Assembly: GCA_021786315.1 (NCBI GenBank)
Contig: JAJYNN010000003.1
Span: forward strand, 67,360-131,359
Length of the DNA: 64,000 nucleotides
Source: a bacterium
GTDB lineage: Bacteria > Patescibacteriota > Microgenomatia > Daviesbacterales > UBA10151
Reading direction: 5' to 3'
Part shown: positions 21,148-58,914 of the stretch, in pieces
Position numbering within the stretch: the first letter of the stretch is position 1
Layout of the letters: every line of letters begins with the position of its first letter
Notes under the pieces: generated by a model
What the model saw: only the letters and a program-made list of their open reading frames with translations
Database searches by the model: none
Told to the model about the DNA's origin: nothing
Made by a program: the position numbers and the translations under genes

Positions 21148-21172
21148 ATTCCTAAATCTTAAATCCTAAATC
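21148..21172. repeat. ATTCCTAAATCTTAAATCCTAAATC motif directly 3' of the tuf stop
   Basis: Single-arm copy of the GATTTAGGAAT family, followed by the GC hairpin terminator. Confidence 0.4.
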
Positions 21173-22353
21173 TATTTAATGATTTTAGTAATAGCTCCAG
21201 CTCCAACTGTCTTTCCACCTTCACGGATAGCGAATCTCAAACCCTCTTCCATAGCAACCGGAGTGATTAACTTTCCAGTAATATGAACAGTGTCTCCTGG
21301 CATAGCCATCTCAACACCCTCAGGAAGTTGGACTTCACCGGTCACATCAGTTGTTCTGACATAGAACTGTGGTCTGTATCCCTTGAAGAATGGGGTGTGT
21401 CTTCCACCCTCTTCTTTAGAAAGGATGTAAACTTCAGCTTCAAACTCAGAGTGAGGAGTAATAGAACCCGGCTTGGCTAATACCTGGCCACGCTCGACAT
21501 CGTTCTTTTCAATACCCCGGAGCAGGATTCCGGCGTTGTCTCCAGCTTGACCCTCATCAAGCATTTTGTGGAACATCTCGATACCGGTAACCACAGTTTT
21601 CTTGGTTGGGCGGATACCGACTATTTCAACTTCTTCATTAACCTTAACTTTACCTCTTTCGATTCTTCCGGTAACCACGGTTCCCCGACCCTTGATAGAA
21701 AAGACATCCTCAACAGCCATCAAAAACGGCTTATCAACATCCCTTTGAGGAGTTGGAATCCATTCGTCAACAGCCTTCATTAATTCCTCAATGGATTTGA
21801 CTGCCTCAGGATCACCGTTTAGAGCCTTCAAAGCACTTCCGCGGATGATTGGAGTGTGATCTCCGTCATATTCATATTTCTTAAGTAAATCGCGGATTTC
21901 CTCTTCCACTAAGTCCAAAAGCTCCGGATCAGAAACCTGGTCAACTTTGTTCATGTAGACCACAATAGCCGGAACACCAACCTGGCGGGCCAAGAGTAAA
22001 TGCTCGCGGGTTTGAGGCATCGGTCCATCCGGAGCGGAAACTACCAAGATAGCACCATCAGCTTGAGCAGCACCGGTAATCATGTTCTTGATATAGTCGG
22101 CGTGACCCGGCATATCGATGTGGGCATAGTGACGATTTTCAGTTTCGTATTCTTGGTGGGAAATGTTAATGGTAATTCCACGGGCTTTTTCTTCAGGGGC
22201 GTTATCGATTTGGTCAACAGATCTTTTCTCGGCTAAACCTTTGTTAGCTAAAACGTTAGTGATAGCTGCGGTCAAGGTAGTTTTTCCATGGTCGACGTGA
22301 CCCATGGTTCCAATATTGACGTGTGGTTTTGTTCTTTGATATGTACCTGCCAT
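21172..22353 (-). CDS. tuf: Elongation factor Tu
   Basis: [23 protein letters not shown]-type motifs, 393 aa. Unmistakable EF-Tu. Confidence 0.97.
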
Positions 22354-22587
22354 ATATTTAAATTAGACTTAAGAATTATTACAAATATTTTTAAGATTTG
22401 CAATACTTCTCTTTGAAGGCCTGTGGGCCTAAAAATCCAGCTTGCTCAGCTGGGTAAAAGTAATATACACAATCTTTTTAAATTATGCAAGAGGGAAATT
22501 TAGCTTTGAAAACCTCTCTAAACTTGAAAAATTGGCCAATTTGTGCTATCCTATCCTCCTCTGTAAAAAGAGGAGAAGGGAGAGAAG

Positions 22588-24009
22588 ATGAGCGAACGAC
22601 TCACTTCCATCTCAATCTCAACTGCCAGCGCACCTACAATAAGGTTAAGTGCACCCAGCACAATGCCAAGCGTAGGAGGCAGAGCATTCTCCCCTAACTT
22701 TCTTTCCCATACCCAAGTATTAGCTCGACCTGCACCCAAACCCGATTTCCTGAAGATGCCTAAGGTAGAAGTAGTCAAAGCTCCTTCTTCAGACCAAAGA
22801 ATATCTCAAGCAGAAGCGTTTAACCCGAACAATAAGATTCTCTGGCAAGCTCCAAAACCGGAAATCGGAGGCCAGAAACCAGAGAGCAAACCAAGCGTCT
22901 CTACATTTAAAGCTGAAAAAACTCCTGCCGCTCAACCTTCGAAGGAACAGCCCAAGGCAGTTGAAGCTAAACCAAAGCCCCCAGTTCAACCAGAAAAACC
23001 CAAAGCCGAGGCTCCCAAAATTGAGACCAAAGATATCACTAAACCAAAAGTTGTTACCCGAAGGGAAGAAGCTAAAACCCAACCCTTAGCCCAAACTTTA
23101 GCCCAGGAGTTAGCGCCGGGGGTACAAAAACCGGACTTTAAACGGCTGGAAAGGGCCGTAAAAGCCACGGAAAAGCCGGTTTCGGTCCTCAAACAAGAGG
23201 TTGAAGAAGTGGCCAAAGCAATCAATGTACCAAAGCCAAAGGAACAACCGGAGGCTAAACCACTGCAGCTTCCAATCTCTCCGGCACTCAAACCGGAAAC
23301 CCAAAGAGCAACCCAAACCCAACCGGAATTAAGTCCGGATCTAAAACAAGCCTTAAAAACCTACGAGTTACTTGCAGCAGCCTTAATTAAGACACAAGTT
23401 GCGCCGGAAGCAGCCCAAAAACAAGCCGCAATTATAGTCTCCCAGGCAATCAGGCCGGAACTCAAAGAACAGTTTTTAACCTCTCTTCAACAAAAACCTG
23501 AGGCCAAGGAAAGGCAACAAGAGGCAAAAGAGAGAGATGAAATTATCAGATTCTATATCGAAAGGGATCCGGAAACAGACAACAGGCGGGTGAAAGCCGC
23601 AATCCAGGCTCTGATAGAGAACTTCCAACCGGGTGAAATACTATCCGGAACAAAGGTCGCCGATAGGATCACATCTAATCTTTTATCAAAAGAACAGCTC
23701 AGCCCAATAATCAGGCCTATCCATCCCTTTGACGGCTTACTGGAAGATTTCCAGACATTTATCCGAAGGTCGGAATTTAGAACTTTGGAGGAAGGATACC
23801 AAAGAATAGATCTGGCCAGCAAACTTTTCCCTGCGGCCCGATTTAATACCCAAGTCACGACCGAGGGGCTCCATCGGGAAAAGGCGTACCGGATTTACTA
23901 CGGAAACATTGATTATGTCTGGGTGGACGGCTGGGGAGTTTGCAGATTTGAACCTGCTGCCGAATCAAGGGAAAAACCCAACCTGTTTGGAACTCTCCAC
24001 AAAGACTAA
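22588..24009 (+). CDS. Hypothetical protein: ~300-aa Pro/Lys/Glu/Ala/Gln-rich low-complexity N-terminal region plus a ~170-aa C-terminal globular domain
   Basis: It is the only long ORF in this interval. Strong SD GAGGAGAAGGGAGAG before the ATG, and a putative promoter TTGAAA-17-TATCCT upstream. It is convergent with fusA, with a 4-nt gap. I recognise no domain. Confidence 0.6.
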   Translation: MSERLTSISISTASAPTIRLSAPSTMPSVGGRAFSPNFLSHTQVLARPAPKPDFLKMPKVEVVKAPSSDQRISQAEAFNPNNKILWQAPKPEIGGQKPESKPSVSTFKAEKTPAAQPSKEQPKAVEAKPKPPVQPEKPKAEAPKIETKDITKPKVVTRREEAKTQPLAQTLAQELAPGVQKPDFKRLERAVKATEKPVSVLKQEVEEVAKAINVPKPKEQPEAKPLQLPISPALKPETQRATQTQPELSPDLKQALKTYELLAAALIKTQVAPEAAQKQAAIIVSQAIRPELKEQFLTSLQQKPEAKERQQEAKERDEIIRFYIERDPETDNRRVKAAIQALIENFQPGEILSGTKVADRITSNLLSKEQLSPIIRPIHPFDGLLEDFQTFIRRSEFRTLEEGYQRIDLASKLFPAARFNTQVTTEGLHREKAYRIYYGNIDYVWVDGWGVCRFEPAAESREKPNLFGTLHKD

Positions 24010-24013
24010 GGAG

Positions 24014-26152
24014 TTAATGTTCAACACGGCCGGTAAAACCGGAGGAAGCAACAATTTTCGCAGCTATATTTGAAGGAACCTCTTCGTAGTGGTCAGCCTC
24101 CATATAGTAAGTAGCGCGGCCTTGGGACATAGACCTGATAGTGGTAGCGTAACCGCCCATTTCTGCTAAAGGCACATAGGCCAAAACTACCCGGGCGTTA
24201 CCGCGCATCTCAGTTGATTGGATCTGAGCGCGTTTTGAAGAAAGGTCGGCGATAATATCACCCAAAAAGTCTTCCGGAGTGGTGACCTCCACCTTCATGA
24301 TTGGCTCAAGCAGAACCAATCCGGCCTTTTGGGCAGCGTCAGTCAAACCTAGAGATCCGGCAATCTTAAAGGCGATTTCCGAAGAATCCACCTCGTGGAA
24401 TGACCCGTCATAAACTACCACCCGGATATCAGTCACCGGATAACCGGCCAAAATACCGGTATCCTCTTTTTCGATCACACCCTTTTCAATTGGAGTAATA
24501 AATTCCCGGGGGATTGCACCACCAACAATCTCCGAAGCAAATTCCCGACCCTGGCCACGGGGTAAGGGCTCGATGCGAAGCAAACAGTGACCGTATTGAC
24601 CGCGACCTCCGGTTTGGCGGATATACTTTCCTTCTCCGCTGGCAGTCTGGGAAATAGTCTCCCGGTAAGCTACCTGCGGCTGACCAACATTGGCTTCCAC
24701 TTTAAATTCCCGGCGCATCCGGTCAACCAAAACCTCAAGCTGAAGTTCACCCATACCGGCAATAATGGTTTGGCCGGTATCAGCATCAGTTTTTACCCTG
24801 AATGTTGGATCCTCTTCTGAAAGTCTGGACAAAGCTAAACCTAATTTTTCCTGGTCAGACTTGGTCTTGGGTTCAATAGCCAAGGAAATAACCGGTTCCG
24901 GGAAGTTAATGGATTCCAAAGTGATTGGGTTGCCCTCGTCACACAAGGTATTGCCGGTGATAGTGTCCTTCAAACCGACAGCAGCCACAATCTCTCCGGC
25001 GTAGGCTTCCTCAATATCCTCCCGCTCATTAGCGTGCATTAACACCAAACGGCCGATTCTTTCCTTGATATCCTTGGTGGAGTTGTAAACATAGGAACCG
25101 GACTTTAAGACTCCGGAATAAACCCGGATGTAGGTTAATTTACCAACGTGAGGATCGACCTGGATCTTAAAAGCCAAGGCGGACATCGGGGCCTCAGGTA
25201 CAGCTTTCCTGACCTCTTCCTGGCCGGTTTTGGGATTGGTACCGACAAACTCGGCAATATCCTGCGGGGATGGTAAAAATTCCACTACTGCATCAAGCAT
25301 TGGCTGGACACCCTTATTGCGAAGTGAAGACCCGGCCAAAACCGGAACAATCTTGTTATCGATAACTGCTTTCCTTAAGGCCTTCTTTAATTCCTCAATA
25401 CTGATCTCTTCCCCATTTAAGTATTTTTCCATTAGGGAATCGTCAGTTCCGGCAATTTCTTCCACTAATTTTTCGCGGTGGATTTTGACATCTTCAACCA
25501 TATCAGCCGGAATCTCTTCTTCCACGAACTTGGCTCCGGTTTCATCACCCTGCCAGACAAAGGCTTTCTGGGTTAAAAGGTCAACTACACCCTTAAAATC
25601 ATTCTCTCTTCCAATCGGCAGGTTGTAAGGCAAGGCGTTAGCCCCCAGACGCTCCCTGGCGGACTCAATTGTCCCCAAGAAGTTGGCCCCCAAGACATCC
25701 ATCTTATTGGCAAAAGCAATTAGCGGGACCTTGTACTTATTGGCCTGTCTCCAGACTGTTTCAGTTTGGGATTGGACTCCGGAAGCAGAATCCAAAACGA
25801 TAACTCCCCCGTCCAAAACCCGCAAAGACCTTTCCACTTCGGCGGTAAAATCCACGTGTCCCGGGGTGTCAATTAAGTTGATCCTGGTTTCCTGGCCTTC
25901 CATCGGACCGGTCTTGGGAGTCCAGAAGGTGGTAATAGCCGCAGAAACGATAGTAATACCGCGCTCGCGCTCCTGTTCCATCCAGTCAGTGGTGGTTGTA
26001 CCTTCATCAATATCACCGATCTTGTAAGTCCGGCCGGTGTAAAAAAGAATCCGCTCGGTTGTGGTGGTTTTACCCGCATCAATGTGGGCGATAATACCAA
26101 TGTTTCTGATTCTGTCGAGAGGAAAATCTCGTTTTGTTTTTGCAACTGCCAT
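24014..26152 (-). CDS. fusA: Elongation factor G
   Basis: [15 protein letters not shown], 712 aa. Unmistakable EF-G. Confidence 0.97.
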
Positions 26153-26153
26153 A

Positions 26154-26372
26154 TTATTTATCTTTCTCTAATTTTTCGATGACTTCTTTAACCTCATCAA
26201 TTCTTACCTGATAGGTCTCAGCATCCTCTTCTAAAGATTGTAGGGCTGAGTCATCACCTAAGTTGGTTCTGGCTTCTTCATCTCTTTGCTGCAAGATAGA
26301 CTTATGCTCACTAATGAGTTTTTTGAGTTTTTCTTGCCACATTTTCAGTTTTTCTTGATTTATTTTGTTCAT
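26154..26372 (-). CDS. Small (72 aa) Lys/Glu-rich coiled-coil protein, translationally coupled to fusA
   Basis: Its stop codon lies 1 nt before the fusA ATG (TAAtATG). A terminator sits upstream, so it heads the fusA transcript. No recognisable family. Confidence 0.5.
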
Positions 26373-26410
26373 TGTTTAAATATCCTCTTTCGGTTTCCAT
26401 AGCTAGCACT

Positions 26411-26433
26411 TAAAAAGCCTCCTTCGGGAGGCC
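26411..26433 (-). terminator. Rho-independent terminator after the 236-aa hypothetical gene
   Basis: On the minus strand, a GCCTCC-CGAA-GGAGGC hairpin is followed by TTTTTAAG. Confidence 0.55.
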
Positions 26434-26509
26434 GTCAACATGTCAATATTACCCAAGATCACGCTTAAAGTCAACACAAACTTCTGATCTGTGACATTGA
26501 AATTTATGC

Positions 26510-27220
26510 TTACCCCTCGGGAGAATTTCGATCCAGGCAAATTTTCATAACTTTGGTGGGCACTTGAGGCAGGTAATTATATGCTCCACCGCTCTTTAGG
26601 CGATAGCCGTTAATAATCCCCTTAGCCTTTTTCTCAACTTTTTCCGGAGAAAATCCCGCAGCTTCGATCTTTGTCCGGAAAACAGATTCCCCCCGGACTA
26701 AGGCCATCACAAACCCCCAATAGATTTTATGCTGCTCCTCCGTCATATAGGAATCAATCCTCTGGACACTCTCACACGTTTCCATAGCATACCTTATTAA
26801 GCCGTTATGGTTGATCTGTTTTCTGGAGATACTTAGTCTTTCCGGCTGTTCCTCCGGCTTTTTCTCTTTTTGAGCCTCTTTTAAGCCTTTGGTTTCCGGC
26901 ACCGCCGCCTCCGGGTCAAAATAATCCCGGAGCATCCAACAACCAATTACTTTTGCTTCATCCAGCTCAGCCTCCGAGAGCCCTGCTTTTTTCACTTCCT
27001 TCATCGCCAAATTAAGTTGGGATTCCTTGGATTCCGGATCACGCAACGTAAAATAGTAGGCAAAAGTAAATTCCCGGGAGACCGCTTTAACAGGATCGGG
27101 AACATCTAAAATAGATAGTTTTGCCCGGGTATAATTTTTTAACTTCCCAAACGGCTCCTCCAACTTGTGGTTAGCATAAACAGAGGCATCAACAGGTAAT
27201 TTGGGCAGTTGTTCCGTCAT
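26510..27220 (-). CDS. Hypothetical protein (236 aa) sitting between rpsG and fusA
   Basis: Intact ORF immediately downstream of rpsG (30-nt gap). Mixed alpha-helical sequence. No recognisable domain. Confidence 0.6.
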   Translation of the reverse strand: MTEQLPKLPVDASVYANHKLEEPFGKLKNYTRAKLSILDVPDPVKAVSREFTFAYYFTLRDPESKESQLNLAMKEVKKAGLSEAELDEAKVIGCWMLRDYFDPEAAVPETKGLKEAQKEKKPEEQPERLSISRKQINHNGLIRYAMETCESVQRIDSYMTEEQHKIYWGFVMALVRGESVFRTKIEAAGFSPEKVEKKAKGIINGYRLKSGGAYNYLPQVPTKVMKICLDRNSPEG

Positions 27221-27250
27221 AAATAGAAATTAAAAGAAGCAGGCGAAGAG

Positions 27251-27730
27251 TTAAAACCTAAAGTGAGCGAAAGCCTTGTTGGCTTCAGCAGCACGTAAGG
27301 TATCTTCTTTCTTCTTAATAGCTACACCTTTACCTTCAGCAGCTTCCATCAACTCTGCAGCCAGTTTACTGGCAAAACTATGGAATTCTTTATTAGAACG
27401 CTTTCTGGCACCCTCAATAATCCAGCGGATAGCCAAAGCTTCTTTTCTGTCTCCCCGGACTTCAACCGGAATCTGGTAAGAAGCTCCCCCAATCCTTCTT
27501 GGGCGGACTTCCATCTTCGGGGAAACGTTGGAAATAGCGGTCTCAAAAATACCTAAAGGACTCTTACCGGTAGTTTTTTCAATCTCTTCCATAGCTTTGT
27601 AGATTAGAGATTGGGCAACGGTCTTTTTGCCGTCAACCATTACCCGGTTGATGAACCTGGTCAAAAGCCGGGAATTGTAAATTGCATCCGGTTCCAAAAC
27701 TCTTCTTTGAACTCTTCCTGATCTTGGCAT
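27251..27730 (-). CDS. rpsG: 30S ribosomal protein S7
   Basis: MPRSGRVQRRVLEPDAIYNSRLLTRFINRVMVDGKKTVAQ is typical uS7. Confidence 0.95.
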   Translation of the reverse strand: MPRSGRVQRRVLEPDAIYNSRLLTRFINRVMVDGKKTVAQSLIYKAMEEIEKTTGKSPLGIFETAISNVSPKMEVRPRRIGGASYQIPVEVRGDRKEALAIRWIIEGARKRSNKEFHSFASKLAAELMEAAEGKGVAIKKKEDTLRAAEANKAFAHFRF

Positions 27731-27738
27731 AATTATTA

Positions 27739-27792
27739 GTGACTAGTGGCTAGGTTTTAGAGTCTAGACTCTTGACTCTAGCGACTTGACTC
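27739..27792. repeat. CTAGAGTC-type palindromic repeat in the rpsL-rpsG intergenic region
   Basis: gtgactagtggctaggttttagagtctagactcttgactctagcgacttgactc. Contains the perfect palindrome gagtctagactc. Shares agtggctag and actcttgactctag with 18962-19065. Confidence 0.4.
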
Positions 27793-27797
27793 TCCTT

Positions 27798-28223
27798 TCA
27801 AGCTTTCGCTCCTCCTGAAGGCCTCTTGGCCCCGTATTTTGATCTACTGGATTTTCTATTGGCCACCCCGCCCATATCTAATTTTCCTCGGATAATGTGA
27901 TATTTTACACCCGGTAAATCCTTAACCCTGCCGCCGCGAACCATGACAATTCCGTGTTCAGCCAAATCGTGGCCGATACCCTGGATATAAGCAGTCACCT
28001 CAGTCTTATTGGACAATCTGACCCTGGCCACCTTCCGCAAAGCGGAATTTGGTTTTTTCGGGGTCATAGTTTTGACCAAAGTGACCACTCCCCGCTTTTG
28101 GGGGCTGGAAGTTGGCGTATATTTTCTGTCTAAGGCGTTAAAACTGCGTCGCAGTGCGGTTGCTTTAACCTTTTTGCTGACAGTTTTGCGGCCGTGTCTT
28201 ACAAGTTGACTAATTGTAGGCAT
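27798..28223 (-). CDS. rpsL: 30S ribosomal protein S12
   Basis: [18 protein letters not shown]...[16 protein letters not shown] is typical uS12. Confidence 0.95.
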
Positions 28224-28231
28224 ACAAACTC

Positions 28232-31200: not shown

Positions 31201-31927
31201 GAACTCTCAAAGGATTAATGCTTTTGACCAGGTCAGCCACAGCTTTGTAGATTTGCTCGAGCTGGCTTTGCTCTACCACTAAGTTGTCACGCAATTTCTG
31301 GATCTCCTGGCGGGTTTTCAGCTCGGCGTCAGAGGCAGCAATTTCGTATTTTTCATGGTCTTTTTGTTCTTTCTTGATCGACTCCAGCTGTTCTTTCATT
31401 GCAGCCTGAAGCTCTTCAATGCGCTTTTCCAGGTTAGCTTCAGCAGCTTTCTTCTTTTCCTCAAGGTCTTTTTCCAGCTTTTCCAAAGCCTGGGTCTTTT
31501 GGGCTTGATCAACCTCAATTACTAGGTAGGAAGCAAAGTAAATAACAGCTTCCAGACTCTTTAAGGAGAGGTCCAAAACAAGCGACAACTTGGAAGGGGC
31601 ACCTTTGACAAACCAGATATGGGTCACAGGAGCAGCTAGGGTAATGTGTCCCATCCGCTCACGTCGGACCTTACTTTGGGTCACTTCAACACCGCATTTG
31701 TCACAAATTACCCCGCGGTAGCGGATTCTCTTATACTTTCCACAGTAACATTCATAATCCTTGCTTGGACCAAAGATGTTTTCTGCAAAAAGGCCATCCT
31801 TTTCCGGCTTTAAGGTCCGGTAGTTAATGGTTTCCGGTTTAGTAACCTCACCAAAAGACCATGCCCGGATTTGTTCGGGGCTGGCGATAGTTACTTTTAA
31901 GGCTTCAAAATCTAGTAAGTCATTCAT
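28232..31927 (-). CDS. rpoC: DNA-directed RNA polymerase subunit beta'
   Basis: 1231 aa. Zinc-binding [18 protein letters not shown] catalytic loop, trigger loop. Confidence 0.97.
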
Positions 31928-31934
31928 ATATTTA

Positions 31935-35516: not shown

Positions 35517-35673
35517 GAGGCTACTGCTCGAGTTTTTTTGGAAACAAAAAACTAAAAAAACTATTTTCAATATACACCCAAAGTCAACAAAAATCCAATG
35601 TCCCAGCTTACATTTTTTAAACCCTTGATACTTGCTACTTAATACGTAATACTAATTTTGAGGGGGTGATTTT

Positions 35674-45792: not shown

Positions 45793-45816
45793 GGTCTACA
45801 ACTTAACATCTATCGG

Positions 45817-46455: not shown

Positions 46456-46529
46456 GCTTAAAATTATACCATCTTAAGGCTATATCTTAAGTGTACCAGT
46501 AAGCCCCGGTATTATCTAAAAAATCTCCC

Positions 46530-46558: not shown

Positions 46559-46564
46559 GGTCAC

Positions 46565-49218: not shown

Positions 49219-49367
49219 AATATTAATTTTAAATTTTCAATTTTAAATTTTAAACATTATTTTAAAATTTGGATTTTAGATTCTAAAATTATAGTAATAT
49301 TATAACATACTTTGTAAAGACTATAAGCCTATTTACAAGCAGGCTTTCAAGCTCCGCTTATGGGATA

Positions 49368-51065: not shown

Positions 51066-51070
51066 AATTT

Positions 51071-51160
51071 TAAAAGATTTAAGAATATAGATTTAGGATT
51101 TAGGAATAAAAAAAGCCTTTTTACCGCATTCTTAATTCTTACATCTTAAATCCTAAATCC
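51071..51160. repeat. AT-rich long inverted repeat (AGATTTAGGATTTAGGAAT ... ATTCTTAATTCTTACATCTTAAATCCTAAATCC) immediately 3' of the Lon-like gene
   Basis: The arms at 51089-51107 and 51128-51160 flank AAAAAAAGCCTTTTTACC. The same motif family occurs at 21148-21172 and 58829-58914. Confidence 0.45.
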
Positions 51161-52201
51161 CTAACTCAAATATTGTCCTATATTCTCCGCCGTTATTCTA
51201 TAGGGTCCGGGGTTACCCTCCACTGTAGCCTTGGCTACCTTGCGGACAATCTTTTCCACACTCCGCTGCAGTGATCTTACTCCGGCATCGTAGCCTAAAG
51301 GACGGACAACCTGGGGCCACAAGGGCTCATCAATGACAATTGTCCCGGGATTTAATCCGGCATCCTTCATCACCCTGGGCAAAATAAAGTCTTTGCCGAT
51401 GACTACCTTTTCATTGTCTGAGTAGGCCGGCATCTCCACTATTTCCAACCTGTCCATCACAGCTGTGGCAATATTGGCGGTGTTGTTGGCGGTGGCAATA
51501 AACAAAACTTTGGACAAATCAAAAGGGTAATCGACAAAATAGTCCAAAAACCCGCCGTTTTGCTCCGGGTCCAGCATCTCCACCAACACTCCCATAATAT
51601 CCGCCCGGGTTTCCACCGCTACCCGGTCAATTTCATCAAGTAAAACAATCGGGTTATTGACCCCTAAATCGTGGATAGTCTGCAAAACCCTTCCCGGCTC
51701 CGCCTCCATCTTTATCCGGGATTGGCCTTTAAGCTCACTTATTGATCCTAATCCCCCAAAAGGAATGCGGACAAGCTTTCGGCCTAACGCTTCGGCTATA
51801 GAATAAGCCAAAGAAGTTTTGCCGGATCCTACTAATCCAATAAAGGCTAAAACCGGGGACTTAGCCTGATGCCCCGCCCGGGCATTTAAGATCAGTACTG
51901 ATAAGTATTCCAAAATCCGGTCTTTGACCGGCTTTAAACCGTAGTGGTTGCGGTCTAAGATTTCCGCTGCCCGTTTAAGGTCTAAGATATCCTCGCTGGA
52001 TTTATGGAATGGCAAGGAAGCGACAAATTTTATGTAATTGAACTCCCGGTCAAACTCCAGGCGGTAACCGGAAACACTTACCGCCTTCTCTAAACGGGCT
52101 AATTGCTCGGAAAGCTTTTGGGCCAGATCAGAAGGAAGACCAGCTTGGTCAATTTGTAATTTTAGTTTGGAAAACTCGTTTCCACCTTGGGCAGGATCCA
52201 T
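51161..52201 (-). CDS. Lon-like AAA+ ATPase module without a protease domain (and without most of the Lon N-domain)
   Basis: Aligns with E. coli Lon residues ~240-585: HYGLKPVKDRILEYL, Walker A GLVGSGKTS, Walker B VLLDEIDR, LDPEQN, the sensor and alpha-helical lid. It stops before any S16 peptidase sequence. Confidence 0.8.
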   Translation of the reverse strand: MDPAQGGNEFSKLKLQIDQAGLPSDLAQKLSEQLARLEKAVSVSGYRLEFDREFNYIKFVASLPFHKSSEDILDLKRAAEILDRNHYGLKPVKDRILEYLSVLILNARAGHQAKSPVLAFIGLVGSGKTSLAYSIAEALGRKLVRIPFGGLGSISELKGQSRIKMEAEPGRVLQTIHDLGVNNPIVLLDEIDRVAVETRADIMGVLVEMLDPEQNGGFLDYFVDYPFDLSKVLFIATANNTANIATAVMDRLEIVEMPAYSDNEKVVIGKDFILPRVMKDAGLNPGTIVIDEPLWPQVVRPLGYDAGVRSLQRSVEKIVRKVAKATVEGNPGPYRITAENIGQYLS

Positions 52202-52229
52202 AATTTTATTCTAACGAATTAAGATGAAG

Positions 52230-54485
52230 TTATCTACCTCGTCTGCCGCCACCAAAACCGCCACGTCCACCGCGATCACCCCGGTCAAATCCGCCGGAGC
52301 GGTTACCGAAAGGACGACGTCCACCACGATCCCTATCTCCGCCAAACTCTCTGCGTCCACCAAAACCACCACGGGATGGTTTACCTTCAGATTCCGGCTT
52401 CATGTCTTCACCAAAAAGCATAGATAAGCCAATCTTGCCTTGTTGATCAACATTAGTCACCCTGACTTTAACCTTTTGCCCTTCCGAAACAATGTCTTCC
52501 GGATTTTCAACATGTCCCGGAGCCATCTGGGAAACATGGACCAAACCGTCTTTACCGGGAGCAATCTCCACGAAAGCTCCAAAAGGAGCCAGGCGAACTA
52601 CTGTTCCTTCCATAACTTCACCAACCTCAAAGGTTTTAAACATCCCCTCAACCTCACCTAAGGCTTTTGCAATTGCTTCATCATCAGTTGATGAAACCAT
52701 TACTGTTCCGTCATCTTCAATATCGATTTGGGCACCGGTGCGGGCAATAATTCCGTTAATGTTCTTACCTCCGGGTCCAATAAGCATCCCAATCTCTTCC
52801 GGCTTAATATGGGTAATCTCAATCTTCGGAGCATACTTGGAAATCTCCCCGGCTTTTGGCTCTGCTTCATGCATCTTTTCCAAAATAAACTCGCGGGCAT
52901 GTTTTCCTTGTTTTAAGGCTTCCTCAATAATGGCAAAGGTTAAACCTTGTAACTTAGTATCCATCTGGATAGCGGTAATACCTTTGACGGTTCCGGTAAC
53001 TTTAAAGTCCATCTCGCCGTAAAAGTCTTCAGTAGCCTGCATGTCGGTAATAACCTGGAATTTCTCTTCATTGGACAAAAGCCCCATGGCAATACCTGCA
53101 ACCGGATTCTTCAAAGGAACACCAGCGTTAAGAAGTGCCAAGGTAGAGGCACAGGCAGAAGCCATGGAAGTAGAAGCATTAGCTGCTAAAACTTCGGAAA
53201 CGACCCGGATAGCGTAAGGAAATTCTTCCGTCGAAGGCAAAACTCCCAGGATTGCTTTTTCAGCTAAAGCACCGTGACCGATATCCCTTCGGTTAGGTGA
53301 ACCAATCTTTTTAGCCTCACCGGTTGAGAAAGGATTGATTCCCATGTTGTAGTGGTGCATATATCTTTTGGTAGATTCCCCGGTCATCCCTTCCAAGGTT
53401 TGGGATAAGGAAAGCGGGCCTAAGGTAGCAATTGATAAAACCTGGGTTCCGCCTCTTTGAAAGACTGCTGATCCATGGGTCCGGGGTAAAATTCCGGTTT
53501 CAATAGAAATCGGGCGGACTTCATCCATTGCCCGGCCATCAACTCTTTTACCCTTGTTCAGGATCGAGTCATTCATAATCTCTTTAGCCACCTTGTCAAA
53601 GATAGAAGAAACCATCTGGGCATCCAAAGTTTCAGCATACTTGGCTGCCAACTCGCTTTTGATCATGTCACCTGTCGCTTCATGCCAAGGGTGAGCAGTA
53701 TCGAATAGAGCAGCTTCAATTCTTGTTCGTGCCTCTTCTTTGACCTCTTTGAGTAATTTTTCATCAACAGCTTCCGCAACTGTGGTGTAAGTTTGTTTTT
53801 CCTTACCTGCCTCTTTGGCAAACTCGGAGATAAAAGCAATCATCTTTTGGGATTCTTTATGGGCTTTCTTAATTCCTTCCAAAACTACCTCATCCGGGGT
53901 TTCCTTACCTTCAGCCTCAATCATAACTACTTTTTCAGCTGTGGAGGCAACAAGAAGGGCCAGGTCAAAACTCTCCAACTCAGAAATTTCGGGATCAAAG
54001 GTATATTTCCCTTCTTTGTGACCAACCCGGACTAAATTTACGGGGCCAGCAAAGGGAACAGAGGAAATAGCTAAAGCCGCAGCGCTTCCCACAAAACCTA
54101 AGGTAGTGGGATCATTAACGCCATCATAAGACAAAACAGAGATTACAATTTGAACTTCATTACGGAAATCTTTGGGGAATAAAGGCCTAATGGAACGATC
54201 AATAGCTCTTCCTGCCAAAACTGCTGCATCAGAAGGTCGGGTTTCTCTTTTAATAAACTTCTGGGCGGTAATCCGACCACCGGCGTAATATTTTTCAACA
54301 TATTCAACGGAAAGTGGGAAATAACCACGGTCTTCCTTTAAAGGTTGGGTAGCTACAGTACAAAGCACAACAGTCTCACCCCAACGGGCCAAAACTGCAG
54401 CATCTGCCGCCTGGGCTAACTTGCCAGTCTCTAAAACTAGTTTTCGACCATGAAGATCGATCTCTTTTGTAACAACTTTTGACAT
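52230..54485 (-). CDS. pnp: Polynucleotide phosphorylase with a C-terminal Arg/Gly-rich (RGG) tail
   Basis: Two RNase PH domains, KH and S1 domains. The last ~50 aa are SRGGFGGRREFGGDRDRGGRRPFGNRSGGFDRGDRGGRGGFGGGRRGR. Confidence 0.95.
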   Translation of the reverse strand: MSKVVTKEIDLHGRKLVLETGKLAQAADAAVLARWGETVVLCTVATQPLKEDRGYFPLSVEYVEKYYAGGRITAQKFIKRETRPSDAAVLAGRAIDRSIRPLFPKDFRNEVQIVISVLSYDGVNDPTTLGFVGSAAALAISSVPFAGPVNLVRVGHKEGKYTFDPEISELESFDLALLVASTAEKVVMIEAEGKETPDEVVLEGIKKAHKESQKMIAFISEFAKEAGKEKQTYTTVAEAVDEKLLKEVKEEARTRIEAALFDTAHPWHEATGDMIKSELAAKYAETLDAQMVSSIFDKVAKEIMNDSILNKGKRVDGRAMDEVRPISIETGILPRTHGSAVFQRGGTQVLSIATLGPLSLSQTLEGMTGESTKRYMHHYNMGINPFSTGEAKKIGSPNRRDIGHGALAEKAILGVLPSTEEFPYAIRVVSEVLAANASTSMASACASTLALLNAGVPLKNPVAGIAMGLLSNEEKFQVITDMQATEDFYGEMDFKVTGTVKGITAIQMDTKLQGLTFAIIEEALKQGKHAREFILEKMHEAEPKAGEISKYAPKIEITHIKPEEIGMLIGPGGKNINGIIARTGAQIDIEDDGTVMVSSTDDEAIAKALGEVEGMFKTFEVGEVMEGTVVRLAPFGAFVEIAPGKDGLVHVSQMAPGHVENPEDIVSEGQKVKVRVTNVDQQGKIGLSMLFGEDMKPESEGKPSRGGFGGRREFGGDRDRGGRRPFGNRSGGFDRGDRGGRGGFGGGRRGR

Positions 54486-54520
54486 AAAACTTAATGAAGG
54501 TTTGAGGCTTTGGAAACTGT

Positions 54521-54556
54521 GGAAGAGGCAACTAGATAAAGCTATCTACCTCTTTG
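54521..54556 (-). promoter_or_regulatory. Long imperfect hairpin in the pnp 5' leader, with an extended -10 promoter upstream
   Basis: AGAGG..TAGATA-AAGC-TATCTA..CCTCTT. Upstream on the minus strand there is a TGgTATAAT. Confidence 0.3.
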
Positions 54557-54604
54557 CAATCTCCAAAACACCTCTCAAACCAAAACAATTATACCATTAA
54601 CTGA

Positions 54605-54874
54605 TTACTTGCTCAAGCCGAGCTTTTTAATCAGTTCTTGGTATCTTTCGTTATCCTTCTTTAGAAGGTATTGCAGAAGTCTCCTTCGGCGGTTAACCAT
54701 TGAAAGAAGTCCTCTTCGGGAATGAACATCATGAGTATGTTCCTTTAAGTGGTTGGTTAAGTTTTTGATCTGTTCAGTTAAAAGGGCTGCTTGAACTTCC
54801 GGAGAACCAGTATCACCCTTGTGGGTGGCAAACTCTTCAATAATTTGTTGTTTTGATTTAATGTCTAAAGGCAT
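54605..54874 (-). CDS. rpsO: 30S ribosomal protein S15
   Basis: [42 protein letters not shown] is typical uS15. A 7-bp hairpin (CAAAGGA-AAG-TCCTTTG) lies in its leader. Confidence 0.95.
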
Positions 54875-55020
54875 AAGCCGTCACTAATCCTTCAGAACCA
54901 GCAGTATCTGTGTTCCAAAGGAAAGTCCTTTGTAATTTACTTGGCAATCTTAGCAGAAAAATAAGAATTTATCAAGGGCATACCTTGTGTACTAATTCAA
55001 CCTAAGCTAAAGTAGTATCA

Positions 55021-55845
55021 ATGTATCTCAAGTTTTTCTCAGAGATTAACAAAAACGATACTTCAGAGGTTGGAGGCAAAGGTGCGTCGCTTGGAGAGAT
55101 GACGAAAGTTGGAATCCCGGTTCCCCCGGGGTTTGCAGTGACCACAGAAACATACAAAGAGTTTCGCGATCAGGAATTACCAGTTGAGGTTAGGGATGAG
55201 ATTTTGGCAGCTTTTGATAAATTAGGAGCTGAGCGGGTTGCCGTCAGATCATCAGCAGTGGCCGAGGATTCTTCAGCTGCTTCCTGGGCTGGGCAATTAG
55301 AAAGTTATCTGAACACCACCAGGGATAATTTAATTGAAAATATTAGGAAATGTTGGGAATCCATAAAATCTGAGAGAGCTTTGGCTTATGCTGCTGAAAA
55401 AGATGTTCCGGAGGATAAACTTTTAGTAGCAGTAGTGGTCCAAAAAATGGTAGAAAGCGAAGTTGCCGGAGTGATGTTTACCATTAACCCCATCACCAAA
55501 GATCAAAACGAAGTTATGATTGAAGCGGGATTTGGCTTGGGTGAAATGTTGGTTCAAGGGATGATCACCCCGGATAACTTTGTGGTTGATAAAAATACTT
55601 TGGATATAAAAAGCATTGATATACAAACTCAGGAAACAATGCTGGTTTTTAAAGATGGAGAAAATAAAGAGGTTCCTTTGTCTAATGAGGAGGGTAGCAG
55701 ACAAACTCTGTCTCATGAACAAATCCGGAAACTAACTAAAATTGGCAAGAGGATCGAGGAACATTACGGTTTTCCCTGCGACATCGAATGGACCCTGGAA
55801 AAAGGTAATTTCTATATTGTCCAATCAAGGCCAATTACTGCCTGA
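55021..55845 (+). CDS. Stand-alone PEP-utilising enzyme N-terminal (PPDK_N / pyruvate-phosphate-dikinase ATP-grasp) domain protein
   Basis: GGKGASLGEMTKVGIPVPPGFAVTT...RSSAVAEDSSAASWAGQ resembles the nucleotide-binding domain of PEP synthase / PPDK. Promoter TTGTGT-17-TAAAGT lies 7 nt before the ATG. Confidence 0.65.
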   Translation: MYLKFFSEINKNDTSEVGGKGASLGEMTKVGIPVPPGFAVTTETYKEFRDQELPVEVRDEILAAFDKLGAERVAVRSSAVAEDSSAASWAGQLESYLNTTRDNLIENIRKCWESIKSERALAYAAEKDVPEDKLLVAVVVQKMVESEVAGVMFTINPITKDQNEVMIEAGFGLGEMLVQGMITPDNFVVDKNTLDIKSIDIQTQETMLVFKDGENKEVPLSNEEGSRQTLSHEQIRKLTKIGKRIEEHYGFPCDIEWTLEKGNFYIVQSRPITA

Positions 55846-55895
55846 ATATTATTCAGGTGTACACACAGCTAAGGTAATGGATATTCAACAACGGT

Positions 55896-56156
55896 TCAGT
55901 GGCGGGGAGAGATTTCCAGAAGATCGGTTCCGCGCAAAGCCCAAGTGATCCCCACCAGAGTAACACCCAAACCTGCCAGAGCAATGGCTGAGTTATGGCT
56001 GACAGCATAAAACCCTAGGCTGCCCCCAAAAGTCGCGGCCGTTCCGGCCAAAATCCACTTTACATCAATATTCCTAATCTTATCGACAAACGACCAGGCG
56101 GGATTATCACCTTTTCCTTGTTCAGCTTTGCCTGTAATATTTTCTATACTGCTCAT
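55896..56156 (-). CDS. Small membrane protein (86 aa)
   Basis: Two hydrophobic helices. Immediately downstream of the DHH-like gene. Confidence 0.4.
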   Translation of the reverse strand: MSSIENITGKAEQGKGDNPAWSFVDKIRNIDVKWILAGTAATFGGSLGFYAVSHNSAIALAGLGVTLVGITWALRGTDLLEISPRH

Positions 56157-56162
56157 TTTAAT

Positions 56163-57293
56163 TTATCCGCCTTTGCCGCGGAAGATTTTCGGGGTTAGCC
56201 AGTCCGCTTCCGGATTTTCTGATTCTATACCTTCACCCGAAGGAGTTTCCTCGGCTGATGGTTGAGGTATTTCAGGCTTGTTCTGTGCTGTATCGAAGGG
56301 TTTTTGCTCAATACCGGAAGACACTACCGGAGGAACGGTAAAACTTTCCTGTTTCTGATCCTGGACCGTGCCGTCTGAAGTGGAAATATTCACCGGCGCA
56401 TTAAAGATCTTGCTTAAATCAATTTCCCCCTCTTGCGGTTGAGGTGCCACCGGTTGAGGAGCGGGTTGCGGGGAGGATACAGGATTAACCGAAAAAGCTT
56501 GCTGAAAATCGGGCTGCTTCGGCTGGGATTCATTAAAGTTTGGTTTCTGCCCGCCCTTTTTCAGAGCTTCAGCAACCACAGCAAAAGTATCAGCAGTGGT
56601 ATTTGTACCTTGTAAGTTATTAGTGGCATTAAATATTCCTGAAAGGACGTTGGAAGCAATATCTGTTTCCAAAGGAAGCTGCAACGACATTAATACCTCC
56701 CCAACTATTTCTGAAACCGAAGAGGAGGCAGAATCGACAATACTTGTATTTCCAAACCTGCTGTTATCACCTTTATTGTCAATATCAATTATATGGGCCG
56801 CAGAAAAAATTTCGGGCTTGGCAGTATAGATTCCGCCTAAATCCGATAAAGTTTTAGCCCCAATCACAAAAATTAAATCAAAATTTCCTCCGGCAGTTTT
56901 TGGAGTAATCGCCGTGGGTTCGAACTTTTGTCCGGGAAAAACTTTAAACACTAAGTTTAAGTCAGACCCGGTAGTAAAGTAATCCATTTTTTCTACCGCT
57001 GTAACTTTTCCATCCGGGGTTGCAACTCCGGACAAAACAATCGAAAAATCTCCTCCCTTACCCTCCGGAAGCTTATTGGTGATATTTCCCACCCCAAATA
57101 AATTCGTGTGCCCCACTAAGATCGAGCCTTCGGTGACGATAGAGACGTCCTTCCCTGCCTGTTTTAAAGAAAGATACAAAGCAAGCCCGGCAGCCAGATC
57201 ATCTATAGTGGGGTTAGAGGACAAGGCAATTAAAACCGAACGAACGGAAGGAAGTAAACCGCGGACATTACCTAATTCAGCCTCATATTTCAT
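56163..57293 (-). CDS. DHH-superfamily (NrnA-like) protein with apparently degenerate catalytic motifs and a Pro/Gln-rich C-terminal tail
   Basis: The N-terminus VLIALSSNPTIDDLAAGLALYL resembles the DHH motif-I region (NPDGDAIGS), but the DHH triad is not evident. It is positioned after infB, where rbfA/nrnA sit in other bacteria. Confidence 0.45.
   Translation of the reverse strand: MKYEAELGNVRGLLPSVRSVLIALSSNPTIDDLAAGLALYLSLKQAGKDVSIVTEGSILVGHTNLFGVGNITNKLPEGKGGDFSIVLSGVATPDGKVTAVEKMDYFTTGSDLNLVFKVFPGQKFEPTAITPKTAGGNFDLIFVIGAKTLSDLGGIYTAKPEIFSAAHIIDIDNKGDNSRFGNTSIVDSASSSVSEIVGEVLMSLQLPLETDIASNVLSGIFNATNNLQGTNTTADTFAVVAEALKKGGQKPNFNESQPKQPDFQQAFSVNPVSSPQPAPQPVAPQPQEGEIDLSKIFNAPVNISTSDGTVQDQKQESFTVPPVVSSGIEQKPFDTAQNKPEIPQPSAEETPSGEGIESENPEADWLTPKIFRGKGG
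56208..56232. repeat. Possible degenerate fragment of the same element at the 3' end of the DHH-like gene
   Basis: cttccggattttctgattctatacc compared with cggaattttctgatattccgatac (map) and ccggttttctgatcttc (rplQ). Confidence 0.3.
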
Positions 57294-57341
57294 ACAATGT
57301 CAGGATTTTAGCACATGCGCTATAGGATGTAAAATTGAGTC

Positions 57342-58793
57342 TTAAAGAAGCCTAAACGATTCCACTATATCCCCAATTTGGAAATCAATCGGGGGATCAA
57401 ACATCATTCCACACTCCATCCCCTTTTCCACCTTAGTTACCTCTTCCTTAACTTTTTTCAGCATCTTAATCTTCCCCTCACCGATTATTTCTTCACCCCT
57501 GACTACCCTGACTTTTGGTCCTTTAGAGATAGTCCCTTCAGCTACATGACAGCCAGCAATCTTTTCTGATTTACCATAAGGAAATTCGGCAATAATTTGC
57601 GCCCTCCCAAAAACTTCCTCGACTTTGCCCGGCCGAATAATCCCTTCCACCACATCCTCCAGCTCTTCAATTAATTCATAAATAATGTTGTATGTCCGAA
57701 CCAACACATTTTCCGTCTCGGCAATCTTATTGGCTGATGGTTTAATGCCAACATTAAAAGCCAAAACAATAGCCTTGGTGGAGGCGGCAATCTCAACGTC
57801 GGAATCCGTCACTTCACCGGTCCCCGAGGAAACAATCCTCACATGTTCCTCATCAGTATTAAATTTTTGGATCATATCCACAATTGCCTCCAATGACCCT
57901 TGGTTATCGGCTTTGACCACCACAGTTAAGATTTGTTTATCACCCTCTTTGAGCTTATCGATCAAGCTCCGCATTGCTTTACCTTCGTCGGATCTTTCCG
58001 CTTCCTCACCAAGTTTGGCTCCAACTGCCGGAACTGTCACAAAACCTAAAACTTCAACCGGAACTGAGGGGCCTGCCGAGTCAGCCATCTTCCCTGTCCA
58101 GTCAAACATTCCCCGAACTTTGCCCTGTGCCTCCCCAGCCTTGATCATATCACCCTTGTTTAAACTTCCGTCCCGGATTAAAACGGTGGCGATCGGACCC
58201 TTAAATTTATCGATTTTAGCCTCGATAATCACCCCTGAAGCCGGCTTTGACGGATCGCCTTTAAACTCATTAATTTCCGCCACTAAATTGATAGTCTCCA
58301 GCAGGTCTTCTACACCCAAGCCGCTTTTAGCAGAAACCGGTACCAAGGGGGTATCCCCACCGTATTCCTCAATCAAAACTTCTTGGTCGGAAAGCTGTTT
58401 TTTAATCTTTTCGGTTTGGACTTTTACGTCAACCCCTGGCAAATCTATTTTATTTAAAGCTACAATCATCGGGATTTTTGCCCCTTTAATGTGTTTTATT
58501 GCCTCCACCGTTTGCGGCATAATTCCATCGTCAATGGCCACCACTAAAACAGCAATGTCCGCCACTTGGGCTCCCCGGGAACGCATTTTTTCAAAAGCCG
58601 CGTGGCCGGGAGTATCAATAAAGGTAATTTTCTTTCCTCCAGCCTCAGTTTGGTAAGCACCGATCGCCTGGGTGATTCCGCCGTGTTCCCGGGCGGCCAC
58701 CGAAGTTTTCCGGATAAAATCCAGCAGGGTAGTCTTACCATGATCAACATGGCCAAGGATGGTAACAATAGGAGCTCGGAGTTGTTCGGACAT
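57342..58793 (-). CDS. infB: Translation initiation factor IF-2, short form starting at the G domain
   Basis: [15 protein letters not shown]1 motif at residue 10. 483 aa. No N-terminal domains. Confidence 0.95.
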   Translation of the reverse strand: MSEQLRAPIVTILGHVDHGKTTLLDFIRKTSVAAREHGGITQAIGAYQTEAGGKKITFIDTPGHAAFEKMRSRGAQVADIAVLVVAIDDGIMPQTVEAIKHIKGAKIPMIVALNKIDLPGVDVKVQTEKIKKQLSDQEVLIEEYGGDTPLVPVSAKSGLGVEDLLETINLVAEINEFKGDPSKPASGVIIEAKIDKFKGPIATVLIRDGSLNKGDMIKAGEAQGKVRGMFDWTGKMADSAGPSVPVEVLGFVTVPAVGAKLGEEAERSDEGKAMRSLIDKLKEGDKQILTVVVKADNQGSLEAIVDMIQKFNTDEEHVRIVSSGTGEVTDSDVEIAASTKAIVLAFNVGIKPSANKIAETENVLVRTYNIIYELIEELEDVVEGIIRPGKVEEVFGRAQIIAEFPYGKSEKIAGCHVAEGTISKGPKVRVVRGEEIIGEGKIKMLKKVKEEVTKVEKGMECGMMFDPPIDFQIGDIVESFRLL

Positions 58794-58828
58794 GTCCTAA
58801 ATTCCTTTCTTTTTTTTATCCCAACCAA

Positions 58829-58914
58829 GAATTAGGATTTAGGAATTAGGAATTAAGCGTAAGAGAGGAAACAATTTGTTTTCATTCTATATTCTTAAAT
58901 CATTATTCTTAAAT
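58829..58914. repeat. AT-rich inverted repeat (GAATTAGGATTTAGGAATTAGGAATTAAG ... ATTCTTAAATCATTATTCTTAAATC) between nusA and infB
   Basis: Same GATTTAGGAAT / ATTCCTAAATC family. It begins immediately after the nusA stop. Confidence 0.45.

Follow-up and report, generated by a model that had tools for sequence, protein, structure and literature searches.

Tandem repeats with a 7-nt unit are, of all long simple sequence repeats (LSSR), the most over-represented in prokaryotes, and slippage of the polymerase over a contact of 7 nt has been put forward as their origin (Mrazek, 2007, as relayed in PMC4679880 and PMC4692102). After 30 years, heptanucleotide repeats are still without an accepted function. 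In Nostoc, deletion of such a repeat changed the output of a reporter, both in Nostoc itself and in E. coli, by a mechanism which that study left unresolved (bioRxiv 10.1101/2022.06.06.494920), and in Geobacter the heptanucleotide units GGACCGG and MTYCTGA have been described (PMC2700814). We found no paper on such repeats in bacteria of the candidate phyla radiation (CPR) or on a GAATTAG unit, and searches with the array strings returned no microbial paper. Here we analyze heptanucleotide arrays in a stretch of 64 kb from a bacterium of the Daviesbacterales (contig JAJYNN010000003.1, positions 67,360 to 131,359; hereafter the window). This gene-dense DNA holds ribosomal-protein operons, tuf, rpoBC, nusA-infB, pnp, a Lon-like AAA gene, rnj and ftsK. 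We put at roughly 55% the probability that heptanucleotide repeats born by slippage, of the class known as LSSR or, in cyanobacteria, as short tandemly repeated repetitive sequences (STRR), have built AU-rich intercistronic stem-loops in this lineage, with a putative role at the RNA level.

The starting point was a sequence-only reading of the window, made by a model, which had described a recurring AT-rich inverted repeat placed immediately after stop codons. The strings were located at the positions it gave, and their recurrence in intergenic spacers is not random. Allowing at most one mismatch, GAWTTARGAWTTAR (GAWTTAR-type) has 11 matches, against 0.90 expected (sd 0.98, maximum 4) from 100 dinucleotide shuffles of the window. 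All 11 are confined to three spacers: tuf|rpsJ (21072-21171, site 1), Lon-like|rnj (51066-51160, site 2) and nusA|infB (58794-58914, site 3). The exact 9-mer GATTTAGGA is present in six copies in the window, only in the same three spacers. The AT-rich setting that had been assumed did not hold, as the window has a G+C content of 42-49% and is not markedly AT-rich. Tandem Repeats Finder (TRF) resolved the motif into a tandem repeat of period 7, with the units GATTTAG, GATTTAA, GAATTAG and GAATATA, and called it at 21153-21173 (3.0 copies), 51090-51105 (2.3), 51128-51149 (3.1) and 58829-58855 (3.9). A scan with the unit lengthened the TRF-called arrays to 35-42 nt, and the motif arrays hold 3-5 degenerate heptanucleotide units. 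Nearly all genes of the window, including every gene flanking the three sites, lie on the minus strand, so that in the mRNA (GAUUUAG)n is the sequence of the arm starting in each stop codon. The mRNA-strand unit is GAWTTAR and that of the other arm CTAAWTC, and at two sites an inverted arm of this kind, (CUAAAUC)n, stops 11-36 nt short of the following start codon. With at least three head-to-tail 7-nt copies, a period 7 that is both over-represented and intergenic, and a genome-specific unit that is reused, the motif consists of degenerate tandem heptanucleotide arrays, and belongs to the bacterial heptanucleotide simple-sequence repeat class (LSSR/STRR-like). Rfam 15 gave no match at gathering score on either strand of the whole window, and an ARAGORN scan of the window for tRNA found nothing.

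The layout of the arms is clearest at site 2. Its 5' arm in the mRNA (51128..51163, minus strand) reads GAGTTAG GGATTTAG GATTTAA GATGTAA GAATTAA GAAT, with the stop codon TAG of the Lon-like gene (51161-51163) inside the first unit (GAGUUAG). The 3' arm (51076..51107, minus strand; AUUCCUAAAUCCUAAAUCUAUAUUCUUAAAUC) pairs with it, and ends 11 nt before the AUG of rnj (51065), a gene with no Shine-Dalgarno (SD) sequence upstream. The predicted fold has a stem of at least 14 bp and a 20-nt loop, with a minimum free energy (MFE) of -24.9 kcal/mol and z = -2.5. At site 3 the 5' arm (58883..58917, minus strand) reads GAAATAG ATTTAAG AATAATG ATTTAAG AATATAG AATG, in phase with the nusA stop codon TAG (58915-58917), and the 3' arm (58829..58857, minus strand; CUUAAUUCCUAAUUCCUAAAUCCUAAUUC; period 7, 3.9 copies) ends 36 nt before the AUG of infB. 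About 1.5 additional units in the sense orientation (58795..58807, minus strand; GGAATTTAGGAC) contain the sole SD-like AGGA/AAGGA upstream of infB. In the MFE structure of site 3, it is this SD-like GGAAUUUAGGA (58795-58807), and not the 5' arm, that pairs with the 3' arm. The two sites have a 16-mer in common, GATTTAAGAATATAGA (51076-51091 at site 2; 58886-58901, minus strand, at site 3). The motif thus begins at stop codons, as first described, but the arms of sites 2 and 3 had been exchanged. The segments 51089-51107 and 58829-58856, taken to adjoin the stops, precede rnj and infB, since these genes are on the minus strand, and the stop-adjoining arms are 51128-51163 and 58883-58917. The notion of an inverted-repeat element survives for sites 2 and 3 but not for site 1, which has no partner arm, and the arm-spacer-arm RNA fold for site 2 and for array spacers as a class (below), but not for site 3.

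The sequence-only reading had taken the motif for a REP-like family, that is, one resembling repetitive extragenic palindromic (REP) sequences. A small dispersed palindrome of the REP kind, or a miniature inverted-repeat transposable element (MITE), copied to gene ends by a transposase such as a REP-associated tyrosine transposase (RAYT), would be in keeping with the extragenic position at gene 3' ends and the inverted arms. Also in agreement with it are the recurrence of one unit family in three spacers, separated by as much as 37 kb, the 16-mer shared by sites 2 and 3, and the fact that each genome has its own family. However, the unit is a 7-nt tandem repeat and not a 20-40-nt palindrome. 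The arms are tandem 7-mers whose number and order vary, the loops of sites 2 and 3 (GCGGUAAAAAGGCUUUUUUU and AAAACAAAUUGUUUCCUCUCUUACG, respectively) are unrelated, and at these two sites neither a full-length copy that is conserved nor a duplicated target site is seen; their likeness is one of units plus a single 16-mer. Site 1 has one arm, and period-7 arrays of other unit families in the window share the same layout. We consider a mobile element very unlikely. The identities of REP or bacterial interspersed mosaic element (BIME), MITE and intrinsic terminator were all rejected for the motif, given its variable 7-nt arms, unrelated loops, lack of full-length copies and lack of a GC stem with a U-tract.

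Site 1 differs from the other two in its neighborhood. The array (21148..21174, minus strand) consists of about 3.5 units from the tuf stop codon TAG (21172-21174), read as GATTTAG GATTTAA GATTTAG GAATC on the mRNA strand (UAG-AUUUAGG-AUUUAAG-AUUUAGG-AAUC from the stop). Directly 3' of it stands the intrinsic terminator of tuf (21121..21146, minus strand; AAGAAGAGGCUGAGGCCUCUUUUUU), a GC-rich hairpin with a 10-bp stem in the MFE structure followed by U6, which is separate from the repeat. An extended -10-like sequence, TGATACAAT, lies 3' of the terminator, ahead of rpsJ. The terminator stem shows compensatory changes between related strains (AAAGGGCGAAAGCCCTTTTTT in L002 versus AGAGGCTAAGGCCTCTTTTTT in L004). 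In a species with diverged synonymous sites the tuf|rpsJ array reads GGTTTAG GTTTTAG GGTGTAG and still adjoins the terminator, and TAG or TAA is present in every array unit of both species. In a pair of strains with 97.4% identity, all seven internal indels are clustered in one 70-nt stretch, which comprises array, terminator and promoter. The single arm at tuf may provide, over 21 nt before the terminator, a spacer in which every frame has a stop. In a related species with an identical S10 protein (L002/L003/L006 329-485; L004 254-420), an extra GC-rich hairpin, CCCCCGACGTACGTCGGGG, is found between the tuf stop codon and the heptamer array.

To place these arrays in their lineage, we took the surroundings of rnj, about 20 kb each, at 80 loci of Daviesbacteria and Gottesmanbacteria, which together with the window make 81 sources and 1.42 Mb, 6.8% of it intergenic. 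By its RNase J relatives, the window falls in the Candidatus Daviesbacteria/Microgenomates part of the Patescibacteria (CPR), and the best species-representative match to its RNase J is 71% identical. In this set, the intergenic autocorrelation peaks at lags 7, 14 and 21, and at threshold 10 lags 7 and 14 have 34 and 31 intergenic tandem arrays, respectively, whereas the remaining lags between 4 and 15 have 0-6 each. Heptamer arrays are thus the dominant intergenic repeat in this Daviesbacteria-like CPR lineage. Their units are diverse (AAAGTGC, GTATTAA, AGAAATT, CTGAAAG, AATTTCA, GAATGHW, ATTTAGR and others), and a genome reuses its own unit in several spacers: GAWTTAR in three in the window, GTATTAA in two each in L028 and L029, GAATGHW in two in L069, and GCGTATAG in two in L212. 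Read by eye, about 24 of the 31 array-bearing spacers have two inverted arms. In about 16 of these 24 the stop codon contains or adjoins the beginning of the first arm, and the second ends a few nucleotides before the next start. Arrays were found in 24 of 583 co-directional spacers and 6 of 115 divergent ones, but in only 1 of 55 convergent ones. Compared with dinucleotide shuffles, array spacers have a median MFE z of -2.6, with 72% below -2, whereas control spacers have a median of -0.7, with 31% below -2 (p = 2e-4). In this ultra-compact CPR genome, where pressure is expected on almost all intergenic bases, the arrays build whole stop-to-start hairpins.

A strong SD sequence precedes 2 of 25 genes behind arrays and, of the 624 other genes whose spacers are 40 nt or longer, 62. 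There is thus no contrast, and the specific claim that arrays replace the SD sequence was rejected, since starts without it are usual after long spacers in the clade. Many genes of the window have a TATAAT-like box 6-9 nt upstream of the start and no SD sequence, among them those starting at 60524(+), 43736(+), 46565(+), 46455(-), 36492(-), 62391(-), 62416(+) and 57293(-), which suggests that leaderless or near-leaderless mRNAs may be widespread in the window. Unlike these, genes inside the ribosomal-protein operons have strong GGAGG/AAGGAG sites.

Between relatives, the arrays turn over rapidly. Four other sequencing runs yielded contigs of the same strain, which match the window at 100% identity and are therefore uninformative on array instability or copy-number variation. 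In a sister species (L209-L211; RNase J 87% identical), the Lon|rnj spacer has the length and layout of that in the window, with the stop codon followed by a repeat arm, a loop, the complementary arm and a conserved AU-rich initiation region (UUUUNAAAAUAUG), but is built from the 9-mers GGGTACCAC/CCTCGTGAT. A 76% relative (L212) keeps the layout with the heptamers TAGCGTA/CTATACG, which it uses again before ftsK, and in many other relatives Lon and rnj abut with no spacer. At nusA|infB, the sister has a GC terminator and an ATGGTKW/CCATAAA heptamer hairpin with the AUG inside the last unit, and its pnp|Lon spacer is a 140-nt CTCAAAT hairpin, compared to 28 nt in the window. Upstream of ftsK, an extended -10 promoter (AGTATGTTATAAT / AGTATGATATAAT) is conserved in the window (49291-49330, minus strand), L209 (11698-11800) and L212 (6306-6419). 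The distance from this promoter to the AUG is about 10 nt in L209, which has no array, and about 75 nt in the window and in L212, where unrelated heptamer arrays lie in between; a GCGTATAG/CTATACGC hairpin occupies in L212 the place of the AATTTTA array of the window. As judged from these comparisons, sequence turnover is fast, the layout recurs and the arrays are not essential. The Lon|rnj series, with no spacer, a heptamer hairpin or a 9-mer hairpin, makes the birth and turnover of intercistronic structures tractable.

Such turnover could also be that of neutral mutational debris: by-products of template switching and of replication slippage, in a lineage whose DNA repair is reduced, that would persist only where they are harmless and have no function in RNA or DNA. 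That orthologous spacers are often missing or hold unrelated units agrees with this, as does the region from the promoter to the AUG of ftsK, where arrays were inserted independently in two lineages and not in a third. One array is simply translated as the tail of L4 (below), folding of the sense strand is not above background, and usage of the SD sequence shows no contrast. Debris would not be expected, however, to persist as array spacers of 100-140 nt in compact CPR genomes with 6.8% intergenic DNA, nor to be so rare in convergent spacers. It also leaves aside the tuf|rpsJ array, kept beside the terminator across species with TAG or TAA in every unit, and the strong polarity relative to the adjacent gene described next. 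We regard a wholly neutral origin and persistence as possible, although we lean against it.

A metagenome scan with GAWTTARGAWTTARGAAT returned at least 120 stretches. Almost all the matches listed are true arrays, 25-200 nt long, on contigs of 23-69% G+C. Among those listed on contigs of 58-69% G+C, (GAATTAG)n starts at a stop codon, and a (CTAATTC)n arm is often found opposite, across a GC-rich terminator-like hairpin (L125, L158, L161, L162). One GC-rich array-bearing contig (L105) is probably acidobacterial, as it encodes an ADOP permease (TIGR03434), a family which we take to be typical of Acidobacteria. Other array contigs encode PckA and NuoM, and hence are ordinary bacterial chromosomes. 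For the 120 arrays among the matches listed, those whose nearest gene end is a stop codon are GGA-sense rather than CCU-sense by 44:12, and by 26:3 within 10 nt of the stop, while those nearest a start are CCU-sense in 24 cases and GGA-sense in 14. ORF calling cannot create this polarity, because both unit orientations hold stop triplets in all frames. In unselected heptamer arrays of other units, G exceeds C in the sense strand by 19:7 where they abut stops (p = 0.03), and the ratio is 12:12 near starts. This polarity relative to transcription, with the purine arm after the stop codon, holds for the same unit in GC-rich genomes as well, and hints in a testable way at an action of the arrays as RNA.

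Several further observations were made on these contigs. AT-rich arms flank GC-rich hairpins at gene ends on contigs of 58-69% G+C in L087-L166, for example L105, L116, L126, L140 and L141. Other heptamer arrays occur on the same GC-rich metagenome contigs (AAATCCG in L089, CCCTAAT in L119). A long GGTTTAG run with a few GGAATTA units in L093 (793-992) has the TTTAGGG repeat of plant and algal telomeres, and probably represents the telomere of a eukaryote, with no relation to the bacterial arrays.

Both the tuf site and the GC-rich contigs raise the question of whether the arrays are accessories of terminators. The purine array would then put stops in all frames and about 21 nt between the terminating ribosome and the terminator hairpin, and the pyrimidine or U-rich arm, where present, would be the 3' flank of a bidirectional terminator. 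Site 1, with TAG (frame 0), TAG (0), TAA (1) and TAG (2) within 23 nt ahead of a GC hairpin and U6, fits this description. So do convergent genes on GC-rich contigs, separated by (GAATTAG)n, a GC hairpin and (CTAATTC)n (AAAGCGGAAGCGGCATCGCCGCTTCCGCTTTTC between the arms in L125; also L162 and L158), and the order with the purine arm first is also the A-tract/hairpin/U-tract polarity of terminators. Yet the terminator suggested by the sequence-only reading is, at site 1, a separate hairpin 3' of the array, and sites 2 and 3, like most Daviesbacteria examples, have neither GC stem nor U-tract. A terminator scan of 51066-51160 and 58794-58914 found no GC stem with a U-tract, but also missed the obvious tuf terminator, and we therefore relied on the fold instead. 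Moreover, the arrays at sites 2 and 3 and in most Daviesbacteria examples stand inside operons directly before the next start codon, arrays are rare in convergent CPR spacers, and stop content cannot explain the polarity since both unit orientations contain TAG or TAA. For the same reason, and because ORF calling forces arrays to begin near a stop, we abandoned stop-codon content as evidence for a three-frame stop. An accessory of terminators is, in our view, quite unlikely.

The constant period, rather than the sequence of the unit, could also be what is recognized. In such a case a cooperative factor with a footprint of 7 nt or 7 bp would open or close the hairpin and thereby tune termination or initiation. 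On RNA, candidates would be an OB-fold protein (cold-shock domain, S1) or a HutP-like reader of UAG-N4-UAG-N4-UAG, and on DNA an omega/RHH-like binder of heptads. The footprint of a cold-shock domain is 7 nt, and HutP sites consist of two clusters of UAG-N4-UAG-N4-UAG at a terminator. Site 1 is a single cluster, UAG-N4-UAA-N4-UAG, directly 5' of the terminator, and the related L002 has UAG-N4-UAG-N4-UAG there; with UAA in its middle unit, site 1 departs from the HutP rule. The strict 7-nt period whatever the unit sequence, the reuse of each genome's own unit in several spacers and a polarity set relative to transcription all speak for a reader of this kind. There are precedents in the omega protein, which is reported to bind 7-bp heptads in direct and inverted order (PMC9499535), and in the proposal that Csp, S1 and CsrA bind TAACTGA repeats (PMC4679880). 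On the other hand, at least five unrelated units coexist in the 64-kb window, and the sister species has 9-mers in the same spacer, so that no single sequence-specific reader fits, and no candidate binder was identified. A protein-binding site shared by the three operons, as suggested from the sequence, is likewise not supported, given the unrelated units of the sister's Lon|rnj and nusA|infB hairpins and the many relatives without a Lon|rnj spacer. We judge a register-reading protein unlikely.

It is tempting to speculate further that (GAAUUAG)n and other heptamer arrays form a polarity-constrained post-stop RNA module, convergent from CPR to GC-rich Acidobacteria-like genomes and read in a 7-nt register by a near-universal single-strand binder, although we would call this a long shot. 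The binder might be a cold-shock or S1-type OB fold, or the ribosome itself via AGGA cores, and the array would set whether the adjacent hairpin forms, with consequences for termination, 3'-end protection or re-initiation. If so, heptamer slippage with palindrome correction would be a general bacterial route to de novo intercistronic regulatory stem-loops.

The explanation we favor, that slippage-born heptamers have built intercistronic stem-loops, can be put as a sequence of steps. Arrays would arise by 7-nt slippage or duplication wherever insertions are tolerated, that is, between a stop codon and the initiation region or promoter of the next gene. An expansion in one arm would be copied to the other by palindrome-correcting template switching. 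Where the spacer was once of near-zero length, this would yield an AU-rich stem-loop of 80-140 nt, with the 5' arm extending from the stop codon and the 3' arm to just before the next start. In a polycistronic mRNA, such a stem-loop would be an intercistronic structure that might hold back 3' exonucleases, mark a site of processing, or couple downstream initiation to upstream translation. What is observed is the period of 7, the intergenic restriction, the inverted layout, the stability of the folds, the turnover of units under a recurring layout and the purine-arm-first polarity. The polarity and the persistence in a compact genome suggest, without proving it, a modest role at the RNA level.

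A number of observations weigh against this explanation. Slippage alone does not account for the expansion of both arms, for one unit at distant spacers, including the 16-mer of sites 2 and 3, or for the same GAATTAG polarity in GC-rich genomes. The seven indels around the tuf|rpsJ array measure 8, 5, 3, 1, 9, 1 and 1 nt, and are not clean multiples of 7. The arms of site 3 pair poorly (z from -0.9 to -2.0, depending on the stretch folded) and site 1 is one-armed. The asymmetry between sense and antisense folding of array spacers (-2.0 kcal/mol, 17:9) is no larger than that of ordinary spacers (-2.2), and thus gives no specific sign of RNA-level selection, for example of G.U over A.C pairs. 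Finally, many orthologous spacers are free of arrays, which means that the structure is dispensable.

Apart from the three GAWTTAR sites, TRF detected period-7 arrays with other units in four further spacers of the window, and in the C-terminal tail of L4 beside the L4|L23 spacer. The related repeats TTGAAAAT/ATTTTCAA, pointed out from the sequence at 7469-7582 and 49225-49290, are real but prove to be period-7 arrays of different units. The first, in the S11|S4 spacer (7469..7582, minus strand), has period 7/14 with AATTTTC/AATTTAC on the plus strand, inverted TTGAAAAT copies and z = -2.2, and is of the same class as the GAWTTAR arrays but of a different family. The second, in the rnj|ftsK spacer (49219..49290, minus strand), has 9.3 copies of AATTTTA at period 7 between the TGTTATAAT promoter and the ftsK AUG. 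A third array of period 7 (27731..27797, minus strand; TAGTGAC/TAGAGTC/TTGACTC), with a palindromic core, lies as a heptamer hairpin in the S12|S7 spacer, which in E. coli is the S7-binding site for translational autoregulation of the str operon. The fourth (35624..35653, plus strand; period 7, CTTGATA/CTTAATA) lies beside rpoB, upstream of a small plus-strand ORF.

The array at L4 (18962..19057, minus strand; CTAGAGT units) comprises a translated part (19026-19057) and its complement in the L4|L23 spacer. The last 25 or so residues of L4 (...EKLESRVKSLESSKDKKQEKEVKS*) are encoded by the heptamers CTAGAGT CTAGAGT CAAGAGT TTGGAGT CTAGTAA, in which the unit that would put TAG in frame reads AAG, and the 27-nt L4|L23 spacer is filled by the complementary units ACTCTAG CGACTAG. 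From this arrangement, the coding tail of L4 seems to have absorbed an intergenic array, a warning for annotation that heptamer arrays can be swallowed into ORF ends. Upstream of pnp, a conserved hairpin without an Rfam match, GGAGATTGCAAAGAG...CTCTTCCACAGTTTCCAAA, is found in the window (about 54486-54600, minus strand), L212 (383-499), L030 (6342-6506), L039 (7494-7645) and L046 (5611-5837), and may be a leader for autoregulation by PNPase or for RNase III. In L030 and L039, heptamer arrays on both of its arms (TCAGATA... / CTGAAAG...) lengthen the apical stem.

The CPR arrays are thus a further case of a repeat class already known in other bacteria, from which they differ mostly in host and layout. 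With the LSSR (Mrazek, 2007) and the cyanobacterial STRR of Calothrix and Nostoc (PMC4692102), as far as the available accounts of these go, they share tandem 7-nt units, typically in 3-10 copies, a strongly intergenic position and a proposed origin by slippage. They also share genome-specific units at many loci, with other periods not enriched. Here, however, a CPR bacterium whose spacers are tiny is the host, the units are degenerate (78-90% matches) and rich in AT, and mostly two inverted arms fill the whole stop-to-start spacer. The TAACTGA repeats of Beggiatoaceae (MacGregor, 2015; PMC4679880) are likewise intergenic heptamers next to start codons, including in ribosomal-protein operons, with downstream genes that mostly lack an SD sequence, and the TAACTGA heptamer occurs in unrelated phyla as well (PMC4679880). 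By contrast, a single unit dominates in the BOGUAY genome, in forward orientation and with 1 of 170 cases inverted (PMC4679880), whereas a genome here has several units side by side, as a rule in inverted arms. In the window the 3' arms stop 11 nt (rnj) and 36 nt (infB) short of the AUG and rnj is without an SD sequence, but starts of that sort are shared here with genes that have no array, and the unit differs from TAACTGA. The GGGAATC/GGGGAYT repeats of Xanthomonas and Nostoc (Rehm et al., 2015; PMC4692102) resemble ours in being intergenic, in varying in length and sequence at each locus between close relatives, and in that some are inverted pairs able to form stem-loops. They are G-rich and have been studied as G-quadruplex formers, while the arrays described here are AT-rich, contain at most GG and have no quadruplex potential.

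REP and BIME elements of enterobacteria and pseudomonads resemble the arrays in being extragenic, at gene 3' ends inside operons, and in having inverted copies able to form stem-loops. They are thought to shield upstream mRNA from 3' exonucleases. REPs are imperfect palindromes of 20-40 nt with a conserved head and a cognate RAYT transposase, in contrast to the tandem 7-mers here, so that membership is unsupported. The repeats of Nostoc PCC 7120 (bioRxiv 10.1101/2022.06.06.494920) and the four- or five-fold elements of Geobacter metallireducens (PMC2700814) share with ours three to five contiguous heptamers at most about 100 nt from starts or promoters, at many loci, and the Nostoc (TTTTGAA)3 resembles the AATTTTC/TTGAAAA arrays of the window. 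In those two systems a regulatory effect has been measured but a hairpin layout has not been described, whereas the arrays of the Daviesbacteria, known from sequence, have the layout.

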